Shown here: in pieces, positions 1 through 4,406 of the stretch
Numbering within the stretch: the first letter of the stretch is position 1
Layout: each line of letters opens with the position of its first letter
From: a virus
Lineage: Duplodnaviria; Heunggongvirae; Uroviricota; Caudoviricetes
Length of the DNA stretch: 4,406 bases
Direction: 5' to 3' (one strand)
IMG/VR virus record: IMGVR_UViG_2703718784_000009
Span: 1-4,406 of that record
Program-made: the position numbers and the translations under genes
The notes under the pieces: generated by a model
What the model was told of the DNA's origin: nothing
What the model saw: only the letters and a program-made list of their open reading frames with translations
Database searches by the model: none

Positions 1-174
1 TGAGGATGAAATAATCCCGTTCAGCGGCGTCTGCCAGTCTGGGGCCGGTTGCATTATCCACGCCGGAGGTGGTGGGGGCTTCACGCACGGAGCCTGGACA
101 GGTGGCGTTGATCCGCAGGCGCTTACGACCAGCGGCAACGTCAGCGCGAAGAGTTTCATTTTCAGCTCTCGCAT
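1..174 (-). CDS. Rz1: Rz1 o-spanin (outer-membrane lipoprotein) embedded in the +1 frame of Rz; 3' end truncated by the window edge
   Basis: ATG at 174..172 (second in-frame ATG at 159..157), entirely inside Rz in a different frame. Translation [58 protein letters not shown]: signal peptide with lipobox (VSAC) followed by a proline-rich mature region, the hallmark of Rz1. Confidence 0.85.
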
Positions 175-394
175 CAGCTAATTCCCTCGAGTATTTTGCA
201 TCGAGCGCAGCAACATCGCGCTGGCGCACCTGCATATCAGTAATGGTTGCGTTTGCCAGCTCCAGCTCTCTGGCTTTTTTATCTCGCTGCGCTTTGTAGG
301 TGATGGCGTTATCGCGGTAATGATTCAGCCCCAGACTAAGCGCACCACAGGCCACCAGCAGGACAATAATCACCACACACAGAACACGGTTCAT
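1..394 (-). CDS. Rz: Rz i-spanin (inner-membrane spanin subunit); 3' end truncated by the window edge
   Basis: ATG at 394..392 preceded by a GAGGGGG Shine-Dalgarno; frame open to position 1 (131 codons in window). Translation [99 protein letters not shown]...[13 protein letters not shown]: N-terminal TM helix then coiled-coil region, near-colinear with phage lambda Rz as I recall it. Not listed in the ORF track because no stop lies in the window. Confidence 0.9.
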
Positions 395-401
395 ATCCCC
401 C

Positions 402-533
402 TCACCCCAGCATCCCCGACGAAGACAACATCATCCAGCCCAGGGAAAGAAAAATAGCAACCAGCATTAGTGAAAATGAAATGCCGACGATTACACAGAG
501 GATCTTCGCCAGCGTTATGAGCTTGTCTGACAT
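402..533 (-). CDS. hypothetical 43-aa hydrophobic peptide ([43 protein letters not shown])
   Basis: ATG at 533..531 with AGAGGA Shine-Dalgarno 6 nt upstream; stop TGA at 404..402, 7 nt before the Rz start. Almost entirely hydrophobic (one TM helix). Below the 60-aa cutoff of the ORF track. Same frame as the upstream ORF 546..728, separated only by a TGA. Confidence 0.3.
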
Positions 534-545
534 GCTTAATCCTCT

Positions 546-728
546 TCACGATTTCAACGCAATGACCAGTTTTGCCAGTCCATACAGCATCGGAGACACA
601 GCAATACCGACCGCCACCCACTTAATAGCAAAAGCCAGCGCTCTGCTGATGTCATCAGTTACAGGCGCTTTCAGTTCAAGGCCGTTTTTCATAGTCAACC
701 TCAACAGAATTCGTTTATACTTTTCCAT
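546..728 (-). CDS. hypothetical 60-aa small membrane protein, C-terminal TM helix (MEKYKRILLRLTMKNGLELKAPVTDDISRALAFAIKWVAVGIAVSPMLYGLAKLVIALKS)
   Basis: First ATG at 728..726 preceded by AAGGGAGAAC (purine-rich SD). The ORF-track start at 761 is a GTG lying inside the terminator hairpin, so the ATG is preferred. Stop TGA 548..546. Basic N-terminus, hydrophobic C-terminal segment. Confidence 0.45.
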   Translation of the reverse strand: MEKYKRILLRLTMKNGLELKAPVTDDISRALAFAIKWVAVGIAVSPMLYGLAKLVIALKS

Positions 729-761
729 GTTCTCCCTTGCCTTATCCAAGGTCAGAAACAC

Positions 762-800
762 AAAACCCCGCTTGCAGCCAACAAACGGGGTTTTTACTTT
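762..800. terminator. intrinsic (Rho-independent) terminator hairpin, bidirectional, stronger in the plus direction
   Basis: AAAACCCCG (762..770) pairs with CGGGGTTTT (786..794); loop has further internal pairing; followed on the plus strand by TTTTTACTTTTATT. On the minus strand the same hairpin is followed by UUUUGUGUUU. Lies between the endolysin stop (885) and the small ORF start (728). Confidence 0.6.
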
Positions 801-884
801 TATTCACTTAGTTTTTGTCAGTTCGCAGGATTTCGTGTTATCCGTCCGTGTGAGCAAACCGCATTTTTCAGCAAAATATTCTGC

Positions 885-1418
885 TTATCTGTCAATTCCC
901 CAGCACGCCAGCGCACTCTCCTGGTCGCGACGGGATACCTGACCGTAACAGTTGTTTGAGCGAATACGGCAGTCTCTGCCACCGTCCTTAATCCACCAGC
1001 GAATCGCTTCGCATGCTCCCCTGCGATCACCTGCATTAATTCGTCTGTAAAACGTCGACGGGAAACACTTACCGGGACCAATGTTGTACGGACAGAATGA
1101 CGCGATCCCCGCTTTCTGGGGTTCGGTCAGCGGCACTCTGATGTTTTTCTCCACCCACGCCAGCGCCTTATCACGCTCAATGGCGTTAACCTGGTCGCAT
1201 TTTTCCTTCGACAACTTCATGCCCGGAACGACAGGTTTGCCATCCACCATGATGGCACCACGGCAGATGGTCCAGATACCTGCACCATCACGGTATGCCG
1301 TGGTGTGGTTACCTTCCTTTTCATCCAGAAACTGGTCGAGAATTTCAGGCGCAGAAGCCCCTGCGGCAATCAGCGCCAGAACGGCAGCCGACAGGCCGTA
1401 TTTGATTTTTGCGTTCAT
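885..1418 (-). CDS. R: endolysin, T4-lysozyme-like muramidase (GH24) with N-terminal signal-arrest-release (SAR) domain
   Basis: 177-aa ORF, ATG 1418..1416, stop TAA 887..885. N-terminal weakly hydrophobic Gly/Ala-rich segment (YGLSAAVLALIAAGASA) typical of SAR endolysins. Catalytic E-x8-D-x5-T spacing present (E..GNHTTAYR D GAGIW T), as in T4 lysozyme and phage 21 R. No strong SD upstream of the ATG. Confidence 0.92.
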   Translation of the reverse strand: MNAKIKYGLSAAVLALIAAGASAPEILDQFLDEKEGNHTTAYRDGAGIWTICRGAIMVDGKPVVPGMKLSKEKCDQVNAIERDKALAWVEKNIRVPLTEPQKAGIASFCPYNIGPGKCFPSTFYRRINAGDRRGACEAIRWWIKDGGRDCRIRSNNCYGQVSRRDQESALACWGIDR

Positions 1419-1529
1419 GGATATTTATCAGGATTTATCGGTTCCGAATCCCTGGATATGTTAAGCCTTCACCCCGCCAGTGGTGGGCACTGGCCAGGGT
1501 ATGTCAATCTGATAAACACAGAGGTGACT

Positions 1530-1790
1530 ATGGATTATCCAAATCTACCAAAACAAACTTTTGCTGATTTAATCGCACTCAGGCAAGCAGTCGTAGCTCT
1601 AATCAACGTGTTGCCGGATGAGGAAAAGGAATTAGTTAAAGCAATTCTTAACAGAACTGCCGCCGATTTTTCATCATTCCCACTGACAGATGACCTTGCG
1701 GACCTTCCTGAATTAATTGCAGCGTCCGCCATTAAGCTTACTGAAGAGATTTACTCTCCTCAAAAGCCTTCACAAAATTCCTGCGAGTAA
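1530..1790 (+). CDS. hypothetical 86-aa acidic protein, convergent to the late operon (MDYPNLPKQTFADLIALRQAVVALINVLPDEEKELVKAILNRTAADFSSFPLTDDLADLPELIAASAIKLTEEIYSPQKPSQNSCE)
   Basis: ATG 1530..1532 preceded by GAGGTG (1521..1526); stop TAA 1788..1790; a strong intrinsic terminator follows about 20 nt downstream (1809..1845). Helix-like amphipathic composition; AT-rich codons (about 42% GC by hand count). The longer track ORF 1305..1790 starts at a GTG with no SD. The 3' end overlaps gene 1738..2373 by 53 nt on the opposite strand. Confidence 0.55.
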   Translation: MDYPNLPKQTFADLIALRQAVVALINVLPDEEKELVKAILNRTAADFSSFPLTDDLADLPELIAASAIKLTEEIYSPQKPSQNSCE

Positions 1791-2373
1791 CTTCAATGCA
1801 ATAATCGTAAAACGCCGCGAACTGCTCATCGCGGCGTTTTTCTTCAGGCCGCTGAAGATGCTCTTTCAACCGTGAAGCGCAGCTTAGATGCGCCGCGCGA
1901 TCAAGAATAGTTTCTTTCATTTCATCTGCTGCAAGCACCTCATTTTTTGTTGGGGTGCTTTTTTTCAATTCAGCGATATAGCACTCCAGTTTTTCAATGC
2001 GTGATTCAATATCATCGTTTTCTGACCGCAATGCCGTCGGTGGCGTCTTCAGAGAACCAGTAATTATTCCCGGTAGTTTTCCTCTGTAGGTTATCAACAC
2101 ATCCTGCGCCTCTAAAATTATGGGGCGCTTTTCCGGCGACTGCTCATCCCCTTCACATAAAGCGGCAGCAATATCCATGAAAAACTGCTTCGCCTGTTTT
2201 TTCGCCTCAGCTTCGTAAAATTCCAGCGTGGCACCTTCAGTACGGTCAAGACTAATCGCCACATTTGGCAACAACAGTGACGGATACCCACCAATTTCCA
2301 GTGCCACAGTAACAGTAATCTTATCCGGGTAATTATTTATCCCTTTAACAACCAGTTCGTATTTTTTCTTCAT
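1738..2373 (-). CDS. hypothetical 211-aa soluble protein inserted between holin and endolysin; function unknown
   Basis: ATG 2373..2371 lies 4 nt after the holin stop (TAA 2380..2378) with GGGGAGAG SD inside the holin 3' end, i.e. tight translational coupling. Stop TAA 1740..1738. No TM segment; the C-terminal half looks helical/coiled-coil (DDIESRIEKLECYIAELKK...). I do not recognise the family. Confidence 0.8.
   Translation of the reverse strand: MKKKYELVVKGINNYPDKITVTVALEIGGYPSLLLPNVAISLDRTEGATLEFYEAEAKKQAKQFFMDIAAALCEGDEQSPEKRPIILEAQDVLITYRGKLPGIITGSLKTPPTALRSENDDIESRIEKLECYIAELKKSTPTKNEVLAADEMKETILDRAAHLSCASRLKEHLQRPEEKRRDEQFAAFYDYCIEVTRRNFVKAFEESKSLQ
1809..1845 (+). terminator. intrinsic terminator for the plus-strand ORF 1530..1790, embedded in the coding sequence of the minus-strand gene 1738..2373
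   Basis: AAAACGCCGCGA (1809..1820) pairs perfectly with TCGCGGCGTTTT (1829..1840), 8-nt loop, then TTTTTCTTC. Weaker in the minus direction (followed there by UUUUACG). Confidence 0.6.
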
Positions 2374-2377
2374 CGCT

Positions 2378-2593
2378 TTACTCTCCCCGCGCCGCCTTAC
2401 GCCGGTCCTCTCTGATTTTGAAATACAGGTTAGTCAGATATGTCAGCAGCCCAAACAGCAGACTCCCCAGCACGCCTATTGCCGCCCACTGAGACGGGGA
2501 AACCCTGTCCAGCAACTGCAGGAACCAGTAGCCCGTTCCCACCGCTGACGTGGTGTATGACACACCTGTTGTGATTTTTTCCATCTGGTACAT
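2378..2593 (-). CDS. S: class II holin (pinholin), phage 21 S-like, with dual-start motif
   Basis: 71-aa [74 protein letters not shown]: two TM segments plus charged C-terminal tail; closely resembles S21 / E. coli EssD as I recall them. Two in-frame ATGs (2593 and 2584). GGGAG SD upstream. Confidence 0.9.
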
Positions 2594-2668
2594 ACCCCGT
2601 CTCCCGTACTCGGAAGCTCACAACAACAAAAGGGCCACCAGCTCTTTACTGATGACCCTGACTCACCG

Positions 2669-2959
2669 TTACAGCATTGTGCCCGATTCTGGCTGTGTGT
2701 CTGTCATATCCGTCACCGGTGGCTCCGGCTGAATATCACCATTTTCCGTGGTGACATCTTCCGCCTGTGGTTCCGGAAGCAGTTCCGGGGATGGTTCCGG
2801 CTGTGCACCAAGCAATTCATCCAGAATGGCATCCACTTCTGCATCAAGACGCGCCTCAAGGTTCTGCCGAAGTTGCTGTTTCAGTGCGCTCCGGACTTCT
2901 TCAGAGCGCAGGACTTCCTTCACTGCCTCAGCAGTGACCAGCGATTTTATTTCTGACAT
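2669..2959 (-). CDS. hypothetical 96-aa acidic protein with helical N-terminal half and Pro/Glu-rich C-terminal tail
   Basis: First ATG at 2959..2957 (the track ORF extends to a GTG at 3133 but overlaps the neighbouring ORF). Stop TAA 2671..2669. Protein-like sequence MSEIKSLVTAEAVKEVLRSEEVRSALKQQLRQNLEARLDAEVDAILDELLGAQPEPSPELLPEPQ..., whereas the opposite-strand ORF 2748..2975 is serine-rich low complexity. Weak SD (GAGAAAA). Confidence 0.55.
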   Translation of the reverse strand: MSEIKSLVTAEAVKEVLRSEEVRSALKQQLRQNLEARLDAEVDAILDELLGAQPEPSPELLPEPQAEDVTTENGDIQPEPPVTDMTDTQPESGTML

Positions 2960-2996
2960 AGGATTTTCTCGTTGAAAGGTGTTGTCAAGAAAGTGA

Positions 2997-3179
2997 CTAC
3001 GGAATGAGCGGATCTTCGGGTTTGCTTCCGGCTGACTGACTGGCGCTGATTTTCTCTGCGGCCCTTTTATCAATCTGCCTGCGCCAGAAATCGCGCACTG
3101 CCCTGTACCCACCCGAAAGAAGATACATAACACAGACTGCCGTACAGAAGTACAGCATCACCTGATGAACAAATGTCAT
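2997..3179 (-). CDS. hypothetical 60-aa small membrane protein, N-terminal TM helix and basic tail (MTFVHQVMLYFCTAVCVMYLLSGGYRAVRDFWRRQIDKRAAEKISASQSAGSKPEDPLIP)
   Basis: ATG 3179..3177, stop TAG 2999..2997. No SD of its own, but its ATG overlaps the TGA stop of an upstream 14-codon leader ORF (ATGA overlap), which follows another 14-codon ORF that has a perfect GGAGGT SD (see findings). N-terminal hydrophobic helix with positive residues after it. Confidence 0.45.
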   Translation of the reverse strand: MTFVHQVMLYFCTAVCVMYLLSGGYRAVRDFWRRQIDKRAAEKISASQSAGSKPEDPLIP

Positions 3180-3276
3180 AGTTTCTTACCGTTATGGTTG
3201 ACAATGAGAACTGTTTTCATTTAAAAAACCGATATACGAAAGCATCTTTTCTTTACATTCTCCATTGGGATTACCT

Positions 3277-3313
3277 CCGCCAGCTTCCGTTCCTGCCGCT
3301 GGCGGCTTTTTTT
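3277..3313 (+). terminator. intrinsic terminator oriented for plus-strand transcription (antisense to the late operon)
   Basis: CCGCCAGC (3277..3284) pairs with GCTGGCGG (3298..3305), 13-nt loop, followed by C plus TTTTTTT (3307..3313). No U-tract in the minus direction, so it is unidirectional. Confidence 0.55.
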
Positions 3314-3318
3314 GCCGG

Positions 3319-4406
3319 TTATGATGATGCCCGGCTTTCGTTAACTTTGACTGTGACCGTATCAAGCAGTACCGGATACGTCGCTTTTGCCCCCGTGATA
3401 TCTGTCAGCGTCAGCGTATCTGCTGTAAAGTCATCATTTGTCCACATCACAAGGTCAAACGCCGTCTGCTCTGTACCATCAATCACCGGAACGACTCTTT
3501 CGCTGTTATTTCCCGCAAAGCGGAAAACAACCGTATGCCAGTTATGGTCAAACGCACCAAATGTACCCAGTTGTGCATTCGACGTGCCCTTGTGGTGCAT
3601 AAGATTCAGATTTGATGCATCCGTCTGAAGGAAGAATGATGCCAGCATACTGTTTGCTGCCGCGCCTGACGCCCACTGCGACACCGGCCAGTAGAGACCA
3701 AAGACAAACTGTCCGTTCACCAGTTCGCTTCCATCCGGAATTTTGAACCGTACGGCAATTTCACCCCCCTTGCTGAGAAGATTTTTTGCCTCCTCCACTG
3801 CAACAGTACGGAACATTTTCCAGGACATCAGTTTACCGGGCTGTTTTTCCAGTCGCAGCGCTTTCCGTCCACCGTCATCAGTCACAGTGCCTTTGCCGCC
3901 GGAAGCACCCCACTGCTGCTCTGTCAATGCACCATTTCCACTGTTCGCATCATATTCAGCCACCGTCCTGGTACTGCTCACGGCCTCATCATGATCAGTA
4001 CCAGCAACACCGCCATCCTGCGGTTTCTCAACATCCGGTGTCCCCGGACTGACAGGAGTTGTACCACCCGACTGCGGTGCGCTCTGCCCGGTAAGGAACG
4101 ATAATGTCCGCCCGGCGTACTGCAAAATGGCACCTGCCAGGCGGTCTGAAACAAGGCCTCTTCGCGCCCATGAACTGAAGTGCGTTTTACGATCGGCTGA
4201 CGTCCAGTTACTGGCAGTGCGTGACGCAGCGCCATAGTATCCCGCCGGGATAATGTCCCGATCTTCTGACGGCTCGTTTGTCGGCACATTCACACCATGC
4301 TCATCCGTCATCAACGGCACAAAGTGAATATTCTGCGCAGCTTTGCCTTTATACCCACCGTAAACCGCCTCATACGGCGCTGCATACCTTTCCTTCCAGT
4401 AGTACG
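3319..4406 (-). CDS. large accessory ORF of unknown function, C-terminal 362 codons only (5' end beyond the right window edge)
   Basis: Stop TAA 3321..3319; frame stays open to position 4406 (the track start at 4320 is a GTG, and the upstream codons ...YYWKERYAAPYEAVYGGYKGKAAQNIHFVPL are stop-free and protein-like). Contains a Gly/Ser/Thr/Pro-rich linker followed by a beta-rich C-terminal domain (FGLYWPVSQW...WHTVVFRFAGNNSERVVPVIDG...), possibly jelly-roll/lectin-like. It sits upstream of the holin in the operon; the antiterminator Q is not in the window. Confidence 0.85.
   Translation of the reverse strand, partial: YYWKERYAAPYEAVYGGYKGKAAQNIHFVPLMTDEHGVNVPTNEPSEDRDIIPAGYYGAASRTASNWTSADRKTHFSSWARRGLVSDRLAGAILQYAGRTLSFLTGQSAPQSGGTTPVSPGTPDVEKPQDGGVAGTDHDEAVSSTRTVAEYDANSGNGALTEQQWGASGGKGTVTDDGGRKALRLEKQPGKLMSWKMFRTVAVEEAKNLLSKGGEIAVRFKIPDGSELVNGQFVFGLYWPVSQWASGAAANSMLASFFLQTDASNLNLMHHKGTSNAQLGTFGAFDHNWHTVVFRFAGNNSERVVPVIDGTEQTAFDLVMWTNDDFTADTLTLTDITGAKATYPVLLDTVTVKVNESRASS

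Follow-up and report, generated by a model that had tools for sequence, protein, structure and literature searches.

Gene content of the window

The stretch of DNA analyzed here (4,406 bases, positions 1 to 4,406 of IMG/VR record IMGVR_UViG_2703718784_000009, referred to as the window) carries a GC-rich stem-loop of the intrinsic-terminator type at positions 762-794, between an endolysin gene and a small open reading frame (ORF), and the possible function of this hairpin is the subject of this report. Over most of its length, the window was 95 to 97% identical to Escherichia coli lambdoid phages, and its identity to the late region of many Shiga toxin (Stx) phages was ~89%. It is the lysis part of the late region of an E. 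coli lambdoid prophage (Stx phage-like, P21 type). The late-operon genes lie on the minus strand throughout, which is called the late strand here. They encode a SASA/DUF6645 esterase (3319 to beyond 4320), a DUF1378 protein (2997-3179), a DUF826 protein (2669-2959), the P21-type holin S (2378-2593), a DUF1327/YdfR protein (1738-2373), and the endolysin/lysozyme R (885-1418). R is 177 amino acids (aa) long and was assigned to the family Phage_lysozyme (Pfam PF00959; E value, 3.3e-24). Its N terminus is hydrophobic, as in the P21 signal-arrest-release (SAR) type, and in phages and genomes of near-identical sequence, the gene bears the label "lysozyme R" or rrrQ.

Beyond R, the late strand carries two small membrane-type ORFs and the spanin gene Rz. 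The first ORF (546-728; 60 aa from the ATG at 728), a cargo gene referred to as ORF 546..728, matched phrog_1115 over its full length (E value, 1.4e-42). The second (402-533; 43 aa; phrog_4906; E value, 3.5e-22) is annotated in RefSeq and lies directly upstream of Rz (2-394; Pfam PF03245; E value, 1.1e-37), which is truncated by the window edge. The spacer between R and ORF 546..728 is 156 nucleotides (nt) long, and the ATG of this ORF is only 33 nt away from the hairpin. The position between the endolysin gene and the small ORF on the minus strand, as given in an earlier reading made from the sequence alone (the sequence-only reading), was thereby confirmed. A sigma-70-type scan of the whole window detected no promoter-like sites on the minus strand, and the cargo ORFs would therefore depend on read-through.

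Structure and stability of the hairpin

The hairpin, AAAACCCCGCTTGCAGCCAACAAACGGGGTTTT, ranked at the top of a terminator scan of the window, with 14 pairs, 6 GC pairs, and a loop of 5. The scan, which applied a tail rule of 5 T in 8, called it on the minus strand only. In the late-strand RNA, the 14-bp helix is unbroken and includes two G.U pairs; its predicted folding energy was -21.6 kcal/mol (z score, -4.8), and none of 200 shuffled sequences was as stable. The plus-strand RNA also folded better than all of 200 shuffles (-14.2 kcal/mol; z score, -3.5), but the two G.U pairs of the late strand turn into C.A mismatches, so that the plus-strand stem has only 9 + 3 bp. These mismatches leave a 15-nt "loop," which explains why there was no plus-strand scan call. 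Likewise, among 14 distinct variants of the allele present in the window (type A; see below), 93.4% of the cells were paired on the late strand, compared with 81.1% on the plus strand.

T-rich tails are present on both sides. On the late strand, the tail (761-752, GTGTTTCTGA) follows the stem as GGGG-UUUU-GUGUUUCUGA. This strand thus combines a GC-rich stem within the range of ~5 to 14 bp and a short loop with a U-rich tract directly after the stem (UUUU of the stem base plus GUGUUUCUGA), as in intrinsic terminators. On the plus strand, the 9-bp GC-rich base is followed by a U5ACU4 tail (795-804; T/ACTTTTATT, read as TTTT-T-ACTTTTATT, or as U-ACUUUUAUU in RNA), which belongs to the conserved block linked to R. 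The hairpin is beyond chance and could terminate transcription in both directions, with an asymmetry toward the late strand. It had been described previously as a bidirectional terminator; the hairpin and the T-runs on its two sides are indeed present, but the two strands are unequal, and the scan call was confined to the minus strand.

A permissive Rfam search of the whole window returned only the rimP leader, which covered the hairpin alone at an E value of 0.19, below threshold, and this identity was rejected. A full-text literature search for the hairpin sequences yielded no papers, and no earlier description of this hairpin specifically was found. Among GTDB species representatives, the exact hairpin occurred on one Escherichia sp. 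contig only and in no other genomic context; its distribution in this set is narrow.

Linkage of the hairpin to R and hairpin alleles

Part of the interval 395-890 was matched by ~2,100 of 5,426 complete E. coli genomes and by >300 phage records, and the whole interval was matched by 990 genomes and few phages only. Positions 730-890 were found at 93 to 96% identity in phages with different downstream genes, including H-19B, TL-2011c, and CP-1639. The alignments had the R 3' untranslated block (~800-884) and the hairpin in common, and homology stopped within 10 to 30 nt past the hairpin. When IMG/VR was searched with the hairpin sequence alone, 123 loci were recovered, and in all but one of these (122/123) an R homologue was present on the late strand, with its stop codon 95 to 96 nt from the hairpin. 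This is the usual location of a gene's own terminator. The hairpin was joined to about five unrelated cargo-side contexts and is inherited with R, not with ORF 546..728. It is therefore the 3' element of R and borders a cargo hotspot on the R side.

Several hairpin alleles occur at this position. In type A, the loop varies freely (GCAGCC, GCTGCC, GGTGCC, and GCGGCC), and the stems are intact across many recombinants. A second allele, type A', has the sequence CCCCGACTGTTGGTGCAATCGGGG. Type B, (A)GGCACCATTACGGTGCC(T), accompanies cargo with the antirepressor gene ant and has a T-rich tail on the late strand only, homologous by alignment to the late-strand tail of type A; its PhiR5_1 subtype folds well on both strands. 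As unrelated GC-rich hairpins are swapped at one position, the hairpin as such seems to be maintained by selection.

A second late-strand hairpin before the holin gene

The terminator scan also identified a minus-strand hairpin of the terminator type between the DUF826 gene and S (2631-2659; 12 pairs; tail, UUUGUUGUUG). This hairpin is specific for the late strand (-26.7 versus -12.8 kcal/mol on the other strand), and its position is conserved, with allelic variants, in TL-2011c, BP-4795, Sakai Sp5, and E2348/69 PP2. Together with the hairpin at 762-794, it brackets the S-YdfR-R lysis block with late-strand hairpins of the terminator type. The presence of a second late-strand hairpin with a U-tail in front of S indicates that late-strand terminators at module borders are a recurring design.

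Proposed role as a late-strand terminator of R

We tentatively favor, at a little less than even confidence, the explanation that the hairpin is the intrinsic terminator of R on the late strand and serves as a module-boundary insulator that is read through by Q-modified polymerase. In Stx phages, polymerase must be modified by Q to reach the late genes (PMC7547250). The statement in the sequence-only reading that late-operon antitermination would be needed to pass the hairpin follows from this lambdoid and Stx phage biology. With the holin-endolysin block on one side and a hypervariable cargo slot on the other, the hairpin would mark the border of the two, and polymerase lacking the Q modification would be expected to halt there. 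In a lysogen, such polymerase could arrive by read-through from upstream Q-independent promoters or from spurious starts. Q-independent promoters upstream of this region and in the same orientation have been described for Stx phages, namely, Pstx1 and a promoter between tR' and stx2 (PMC7547250). Halting at the hairpin would leave the cargo genes, which include ant in many phages, as well as Rz and the packaging genes, silent in the lysogen. During lytic growth, Q-modified polymerase would pass the hairpin, and the small ORFs would be translated from the polycistronic late mRNA, with the Shine-Dalgarno (SD) sequence at 738-732 serving ORF 546..728. As an A-run and a T-run lie beside the stem, antisense transcription from the cargo could be stopped as well, and the hairpin may thus keep stray antisense transcripts that leave the cargo from entering R and S.

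This proposal resembles several known arrangements. With tR'-like terminators read through under Q and with terminators at moron boundaries, the hairpin shares a GC-rich stem, a late-strand U-tail, a location at the junction of conserved and variable modules, and a Q-antiterminated late operon. It differs from these terminators (for the moron concept, see PMC4104026) in lying upstream of the variable cargo and belonging to R, rather than being the cargo's own terminator. The likeness to bidirectional intrinsic terminators consists in a stem placed between AAAA and TTTT(T) and in folds that exceed shuffled sequences on both strands. Bidirectional terminators typically stand between convergent genes. 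Here, the flanking genes are codirectional and the strands are unequal (14 versus 9 + 3 bp).

If the explanation is correct, the hairpin would be one of at least two late-strand terminators that bracket the holin-endolysin block in an E. coli prophage family that is very common and includes Stx phages, and it would help to explain the silence of ant or of small membrane-protein genes in the R-Rz slot of lysogens. The hairpin also marks a precise, conserved joint of cargo exchange between phages. These results could be of use in annotating the lysis cassette and cargo slot of common prophages and in engineering lysis cassettes, although the biology itself would be unsurprising.

Several observations weigh against a role as a late-strand terminator. 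The late-strand U-tract is interrupted (UUUUGUGUUUCU). Two-sided (compensatory) pair changes were absent among the 14 type A variants, and as these variants are too alike, covariation proves no RNA structure. The alleles A, A', B, and C also disagree on strand and direction. Type C (CCCCGG...CCGGGG) has a T-run on the plus strand only, and in the Sakai/BP-4795 subtype of type B, the plus-strand RNA was predicted to be more stable (-12.8 kcal/mol) than the late-strand RNA (-6.6 kcal/mol). Furthermore, a terminator located after S and R cannot shield the cell from the products of these two genes, so that any benefit must concern the cargo and the genes downstream. The T-rich tail of the Sakai/BP-4795 subtype is nevertheless present only on the late strand. 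Type B was considered as proof of a late-strand function and serves as such only in part, as it has the late-strand tail but, in Sakai, the better stem is on the plus strand.

The same structural facts would also fit a mainly posttranscriptional role, in which the stem-loop blocks 3'-to-5' exonucleases after downstream cleavage of the late mRNA, stabilizes the S-R segment, and sets its level relative to those of the cargo, Rz, and structural genes. Read-through is expected in the only phase in which R is needed, so that selection would act on a posttranscriptional role. The preceding module also ends, in front of S, in a similar hairpin, and alleles with a poor late-strand U-tail, such as type C, would still be functional in this way. 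However, the conserved late-strand U-tail of types A and B would be superfluous for mRNA stabilization, and we consider this role unlikely, although it is inseparable from termination by sequence alone.

Promoter-like element and proposed antisense RNA

A sigma-70 promoter-like match, TAGTCA-18-TATACT, is present on the plus strand at 692-721 (TAGTCA, 692-697; TATACT, 716-721; 9/12). The sequence-only reading had taken it as a -35/-10 promoter from which an RNA of ~70 nt (729 to ~800) would run to the hairpin and cover the SD and leader of the small ORF. Pairing with the SD and leader would repress ORF 546..728, either by cis-antisense control like that of sar and ant in phage P22 or as part of a type I toxin-antitoxin pair. 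The hexamers, spacer, distance, and coordinates were all as described, and the geometry of the RNA holds with a slight correction, as the ATG of ORF 546..728 is at 728-726 and its SD, AAGGGAG (738-732), lies 3 nt from it. The leader (732-751, minus strand) can form a short hairpin, CCUUG (751-747)/CAAGG (739-735), that overlaps the SD, and it is conserved in three cargo classes.

A dedicated promoter for a regulatory antisense RNA was not borne out. Sites scoring like the element were found 3 times in the window, compared with 3.9 ± 2.0 expected from dinucleotide shuffles, and in such shuffles of the 220 nt upstream of the hairpin, one or more plus-strand sites appeared with a frequency of 0.095. 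The match is thus indistinguishable from chance. It lies within codons of ORF 546..728 (K-Y-K...L-T-M), and the variation seen in it is that expected of coding sequence; only one informative synonymous site falls in the -10 hexamer. As the K-Y-K codons dictate TATACT, persistence of the match needs no promoter. A diverged relative of ORF 546..728 has a 10/12 match (TGGACA-18-TATACT) at the corresponding codons, which could be taken in favor of a promoter. Plus-strand promoter-like matches within 220 nt of the hairpin were present in four of five cargo classes (expected, 0.10 to 0.18 per class), two of which are homologous to each other. However, the matches across the cargo classes lie 42, 67, 131, and 148 nt from the hairpin, so that no common RNA would result, and one class has lost its match (CATAAC).

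The predicted RNA does have the appearance of a small RNA (sRNA). It would be 84 nt long, with an A-rich linker between a 5' hairpin and a U5-tailed terminator, and its folding energy was -20 kcal/mol (z score, -3.1). Against an antisense function are the linkage of the hairpin to R rather than to ORF 546..728, the plus-strand stem being the weaker of the two, and the outcomes of the Rfam and literature searches, with no significant match in the former and no paper from the latter. Overall, the antisense RNA at 729-800 is unsupported rather than refuted, and we regard antisense repression of ORF 546..728 as quite unlikely.

In P22, the 5' end of the target gene contains the sar promoter, and an RNA of ~70 nt extends across the ribosome-binding site and ends in the upstream intercistronic spacer. 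The geometry proposed for the window matches this arrangement, and many Stx phages carry ant in the same slot; sar is known to inhibit antirepression (reviewed in PMC5415839). The comparison fails in other respects. The promoter is at chance level here, its position relative to the terminator varies across cargo classes instead of being conserved, and the ant-carrying type B allele has no plus-strand T-run. The resemblance to type I toxin-antitoxin systems (hok/sok-like) is limited to a small ORF with one hydrophobic stretch and a possible antisense RNA over its translation start. Unlike type I toxins, ORF 546..728 has no promoter of its own, as the minus strand of the window contains no promoter-like site, and it lies inside a phage operon and belongs to a phage family; the antisense promoter is, moreover, putative.

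Validated sRNA genes oriented against the late operon do exist at neighboring junctions in the same kind of prophage, which speaks for the antisense RNA. The hairpin was compared with the EcOnc list (Tree 2014), the Pas list (Pearl Mizrahi 2021), and the HnrS paper, all mapped onto Sakai and E2348/69. PasA/PasC (EcOnc51/52), HnrS (EcOnc10-12), and AsxR/AgvB share with it the late region, an intergenic junction, and opposite-strand terminators with U-tails. However, PasA/PasC lie between the esterase and holin genes, HnrS follows Rz, and AsxR/AgvB follow stx, and none is located at the R-cargo junction. PasB is located between tail genes. The -35 box of the PasA family is conserved at a fixed distance, and the hairpin at 762-794 has no equivalent. 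As none of EcOnc10-12/HnrS, PasA/PasC, or PasB is at the R-cargo junction, identity of the hairpin with a known sRNA of enterohemorrhagic or enteropathogenic E. coli was rejected. Rfam models of AgvB and AsxR did not match the window. The Hfq cross-linking and analysis of cDNA (CRAC) catalogue of Sakai lists no sRNA in the R-ant (R-cargo) spacer, which is only weak negative evidence, because the Sakai prophages checked (Sp5, Sp9, Sp12, and Sp15) are all type B and because the published filter dropped sense-strand peaks within 100 bp of genes.

A broader version of the antisense proposal is similarly improbable. The plus-strand face of the hairpin would be the terminator of an undescribed prophage sRNA made in lysogens, in which the late strand is silent. 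In the window, this RNA would act as a sar-like repressor of ORF 546..728; more generally, the site would be a fourth slot for sRNAs against the late operon, beside those of AsxR/AgvB, PasA/C, and HnrS, with a 5' part that changes with the cargo. The locus would be of wider interest only if this minority reading, a new antisense or prophage sRNA, were true.

A plus-strand locus at 3198-3313, between the DUF1378 and esterase genes, is related to the validated sRNAs PasA/PasC (E2348/69) and EcOnc51 (Sakai Sp12) by position and, in part, by sequence and is oriented against the late operon. The TTGACA box that is invariant in this sRNA family lies at 3198-3203, and the terminator, a GCCAGC...GCTGGC stem ending in a T7 tail, lies at 3293-3313, with the spacing found in PasA/PasC/EcOnc51. 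The RNA body is different, as has been described for variants of PasA. When the sequence-only reading called the hairpin site the second of its kind in the window, the first locus implied was probably this one. It keeps TTGACA at a fixed distance from its terminator, whereas nothing comparable is conserved at 762-794.

Recombination at the hairpin and the R 3' untranslated block

Recombination joints were found on either side of the hairpin, and every combination of left context, loop variant, and right context occurs. These joints, together with the lack of compensatory double changes, would be compatible with the hairpin being a functionless relic, that is, the terminator of an ancestral S-R cassette that is harmless under Q antitermination and whose sequence serves only as a homology patch for cargo recombination. 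The intact stems beside a freely varying loop, the substitution of unrelated hairpins at the same spot, and the recurrence of the design in front of S argue against a relic, which we consider very unlikely.

The R 3' untranslated block (795-884, minus strand) could be aligned across all hairpin alleles. Conserved blocks (ACTTTTATTCACTTA, GCAGGATTTCGTGTTATCCG, and CATTTTTCAGCAAAATATTCTGCTTATCTGTC) surround a variable patch at 846-862. The mean majority frequency was 0.927, compared with 0.862 at the third codon positions of R; 20 of the 85 columns of the block are fixed by the search pattern. RNAalifold predicted no conserved structure in the block besides a 4-bp hairpin and the terminator, and a structured RNA was rejected on this outcome. 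Highly unlikely, finally, is that the conserved 85-nt R 3' untranslated region and the hairpin form a late-strand RNA of ~125 nt that is released by termination or processing and acts in trans, for although its blocks exceed the third codon positions of R in conservation and its layout is fitting (a U-tailed terminator preceded by a conserved body and an A-rich stretch), there is no late-strand promoter in or before the block and no conserved fold beyond the two hairpins, the late strand is silent in lysogens, and Hfq-CRAC showed no sRNA in the Sakai R-ant spacer (in a type B strain and with near-gene sense peaks filtered).

Two further candidates in this block were rejected. A perfect TTGACA at 882-877 could suggest a late-strand promoter in the 3' end of R, but there is no usable -10 hexamer at 16 to 18 nt. 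An 8-codon mini-ORF (ATG...TAA) over the variable patch is not coding, as it has no SD and its ATG is lost in many variants. In many relatives, the patch is a perfect DNA palindrome (GTTGGCCAAC or CGTGGCCACG); the window has GTGTGAGCAAAC.

Cargo slot and small ORFs

The gap between R and Rz ranged from 300 to about 1,960 bp, with >20 size classes, and the genes in it were on the late strand in every case. Its contents include one 45-aa membrane ORF in TL-2011c and CP-1639, two small ORFs in the window, ant and a 48-aa ORF in BP-4795 and in Sakai Sp5, Sp9, Sp12, and Sp15, and a 231-aa ORF in PhiR5_1. The 48-aa ORF located before Rz in ant-carrying Stx phages is a homologue of the ORF at 402-533. 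In K-12 Qin, rrrQ overlaps rzpQ, so that there is no R-Rz spacer on which the well-mapped K-12 transcriptome could bear; a spacer is likewise absent from E2348/69 PP2. What closes the R-Rz interval is in every case a small membrane ORF, which directly precedes the Rz start or overlaps it. These small membrane ORFs are mosaic, with a shared "...AFAIK/R..." core and ends of either "...LAKLVIALKS" or "...IRWW."

ORF 546..728 corresponds to the RefSeq hypothetical protein WP_052834940.1 in a locus of 97.8% identity. It has one hydrophobic stretch, and phrog_1115 is a recurrent phage family. An N-terminal motif, xKYKxxxLRLxxMKxG, is conserved at the protein level in diverged relatives. A second in-frame start, ATG 692, has its own SD (GAGG), and the 12-residue extension between the starts at 728 and 692 is strongly basic (K, K, R, and R). 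Diverged relatives have retained the two starts as well as the motif, an arrangement that is reminiscent of the dual-start motifs of holins and may be analogous to them.

In type B loci, in the leader that runs from the hairpin to ant (BP-4795, ~2700-2760; also Sakai Sp5, Sp9, Sp12, and Sp15), there is a tandem direct repeat, GCGCATCTCAC GCGCATCTCAC. Type C loci (L065/L076) carry TTGACA-13 nt-TATAAT on the late strand, ~60 nt beyond the hairpin toward the cargo. Although the two hexamers are perfect, they stand closer together than a standard sigma-70 promoter allows, and the scan did not call the site; it is possibly a cargo promoter of unusual geometry.

The only plus-strand gene of the window with family support is at 1530-1790 (phrog_2572; E value, 3.6e-50). 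It is annotated as DUF1823 in PhiR5_1 and is convergent with the 3' end of the DUF1327/YdfR gene, with a 53-nt overlap. The window has the long form of YdfR (211 aa), in place of which BP-4795 has a 114-aa form and STEC2018-607 has a pseudogene.

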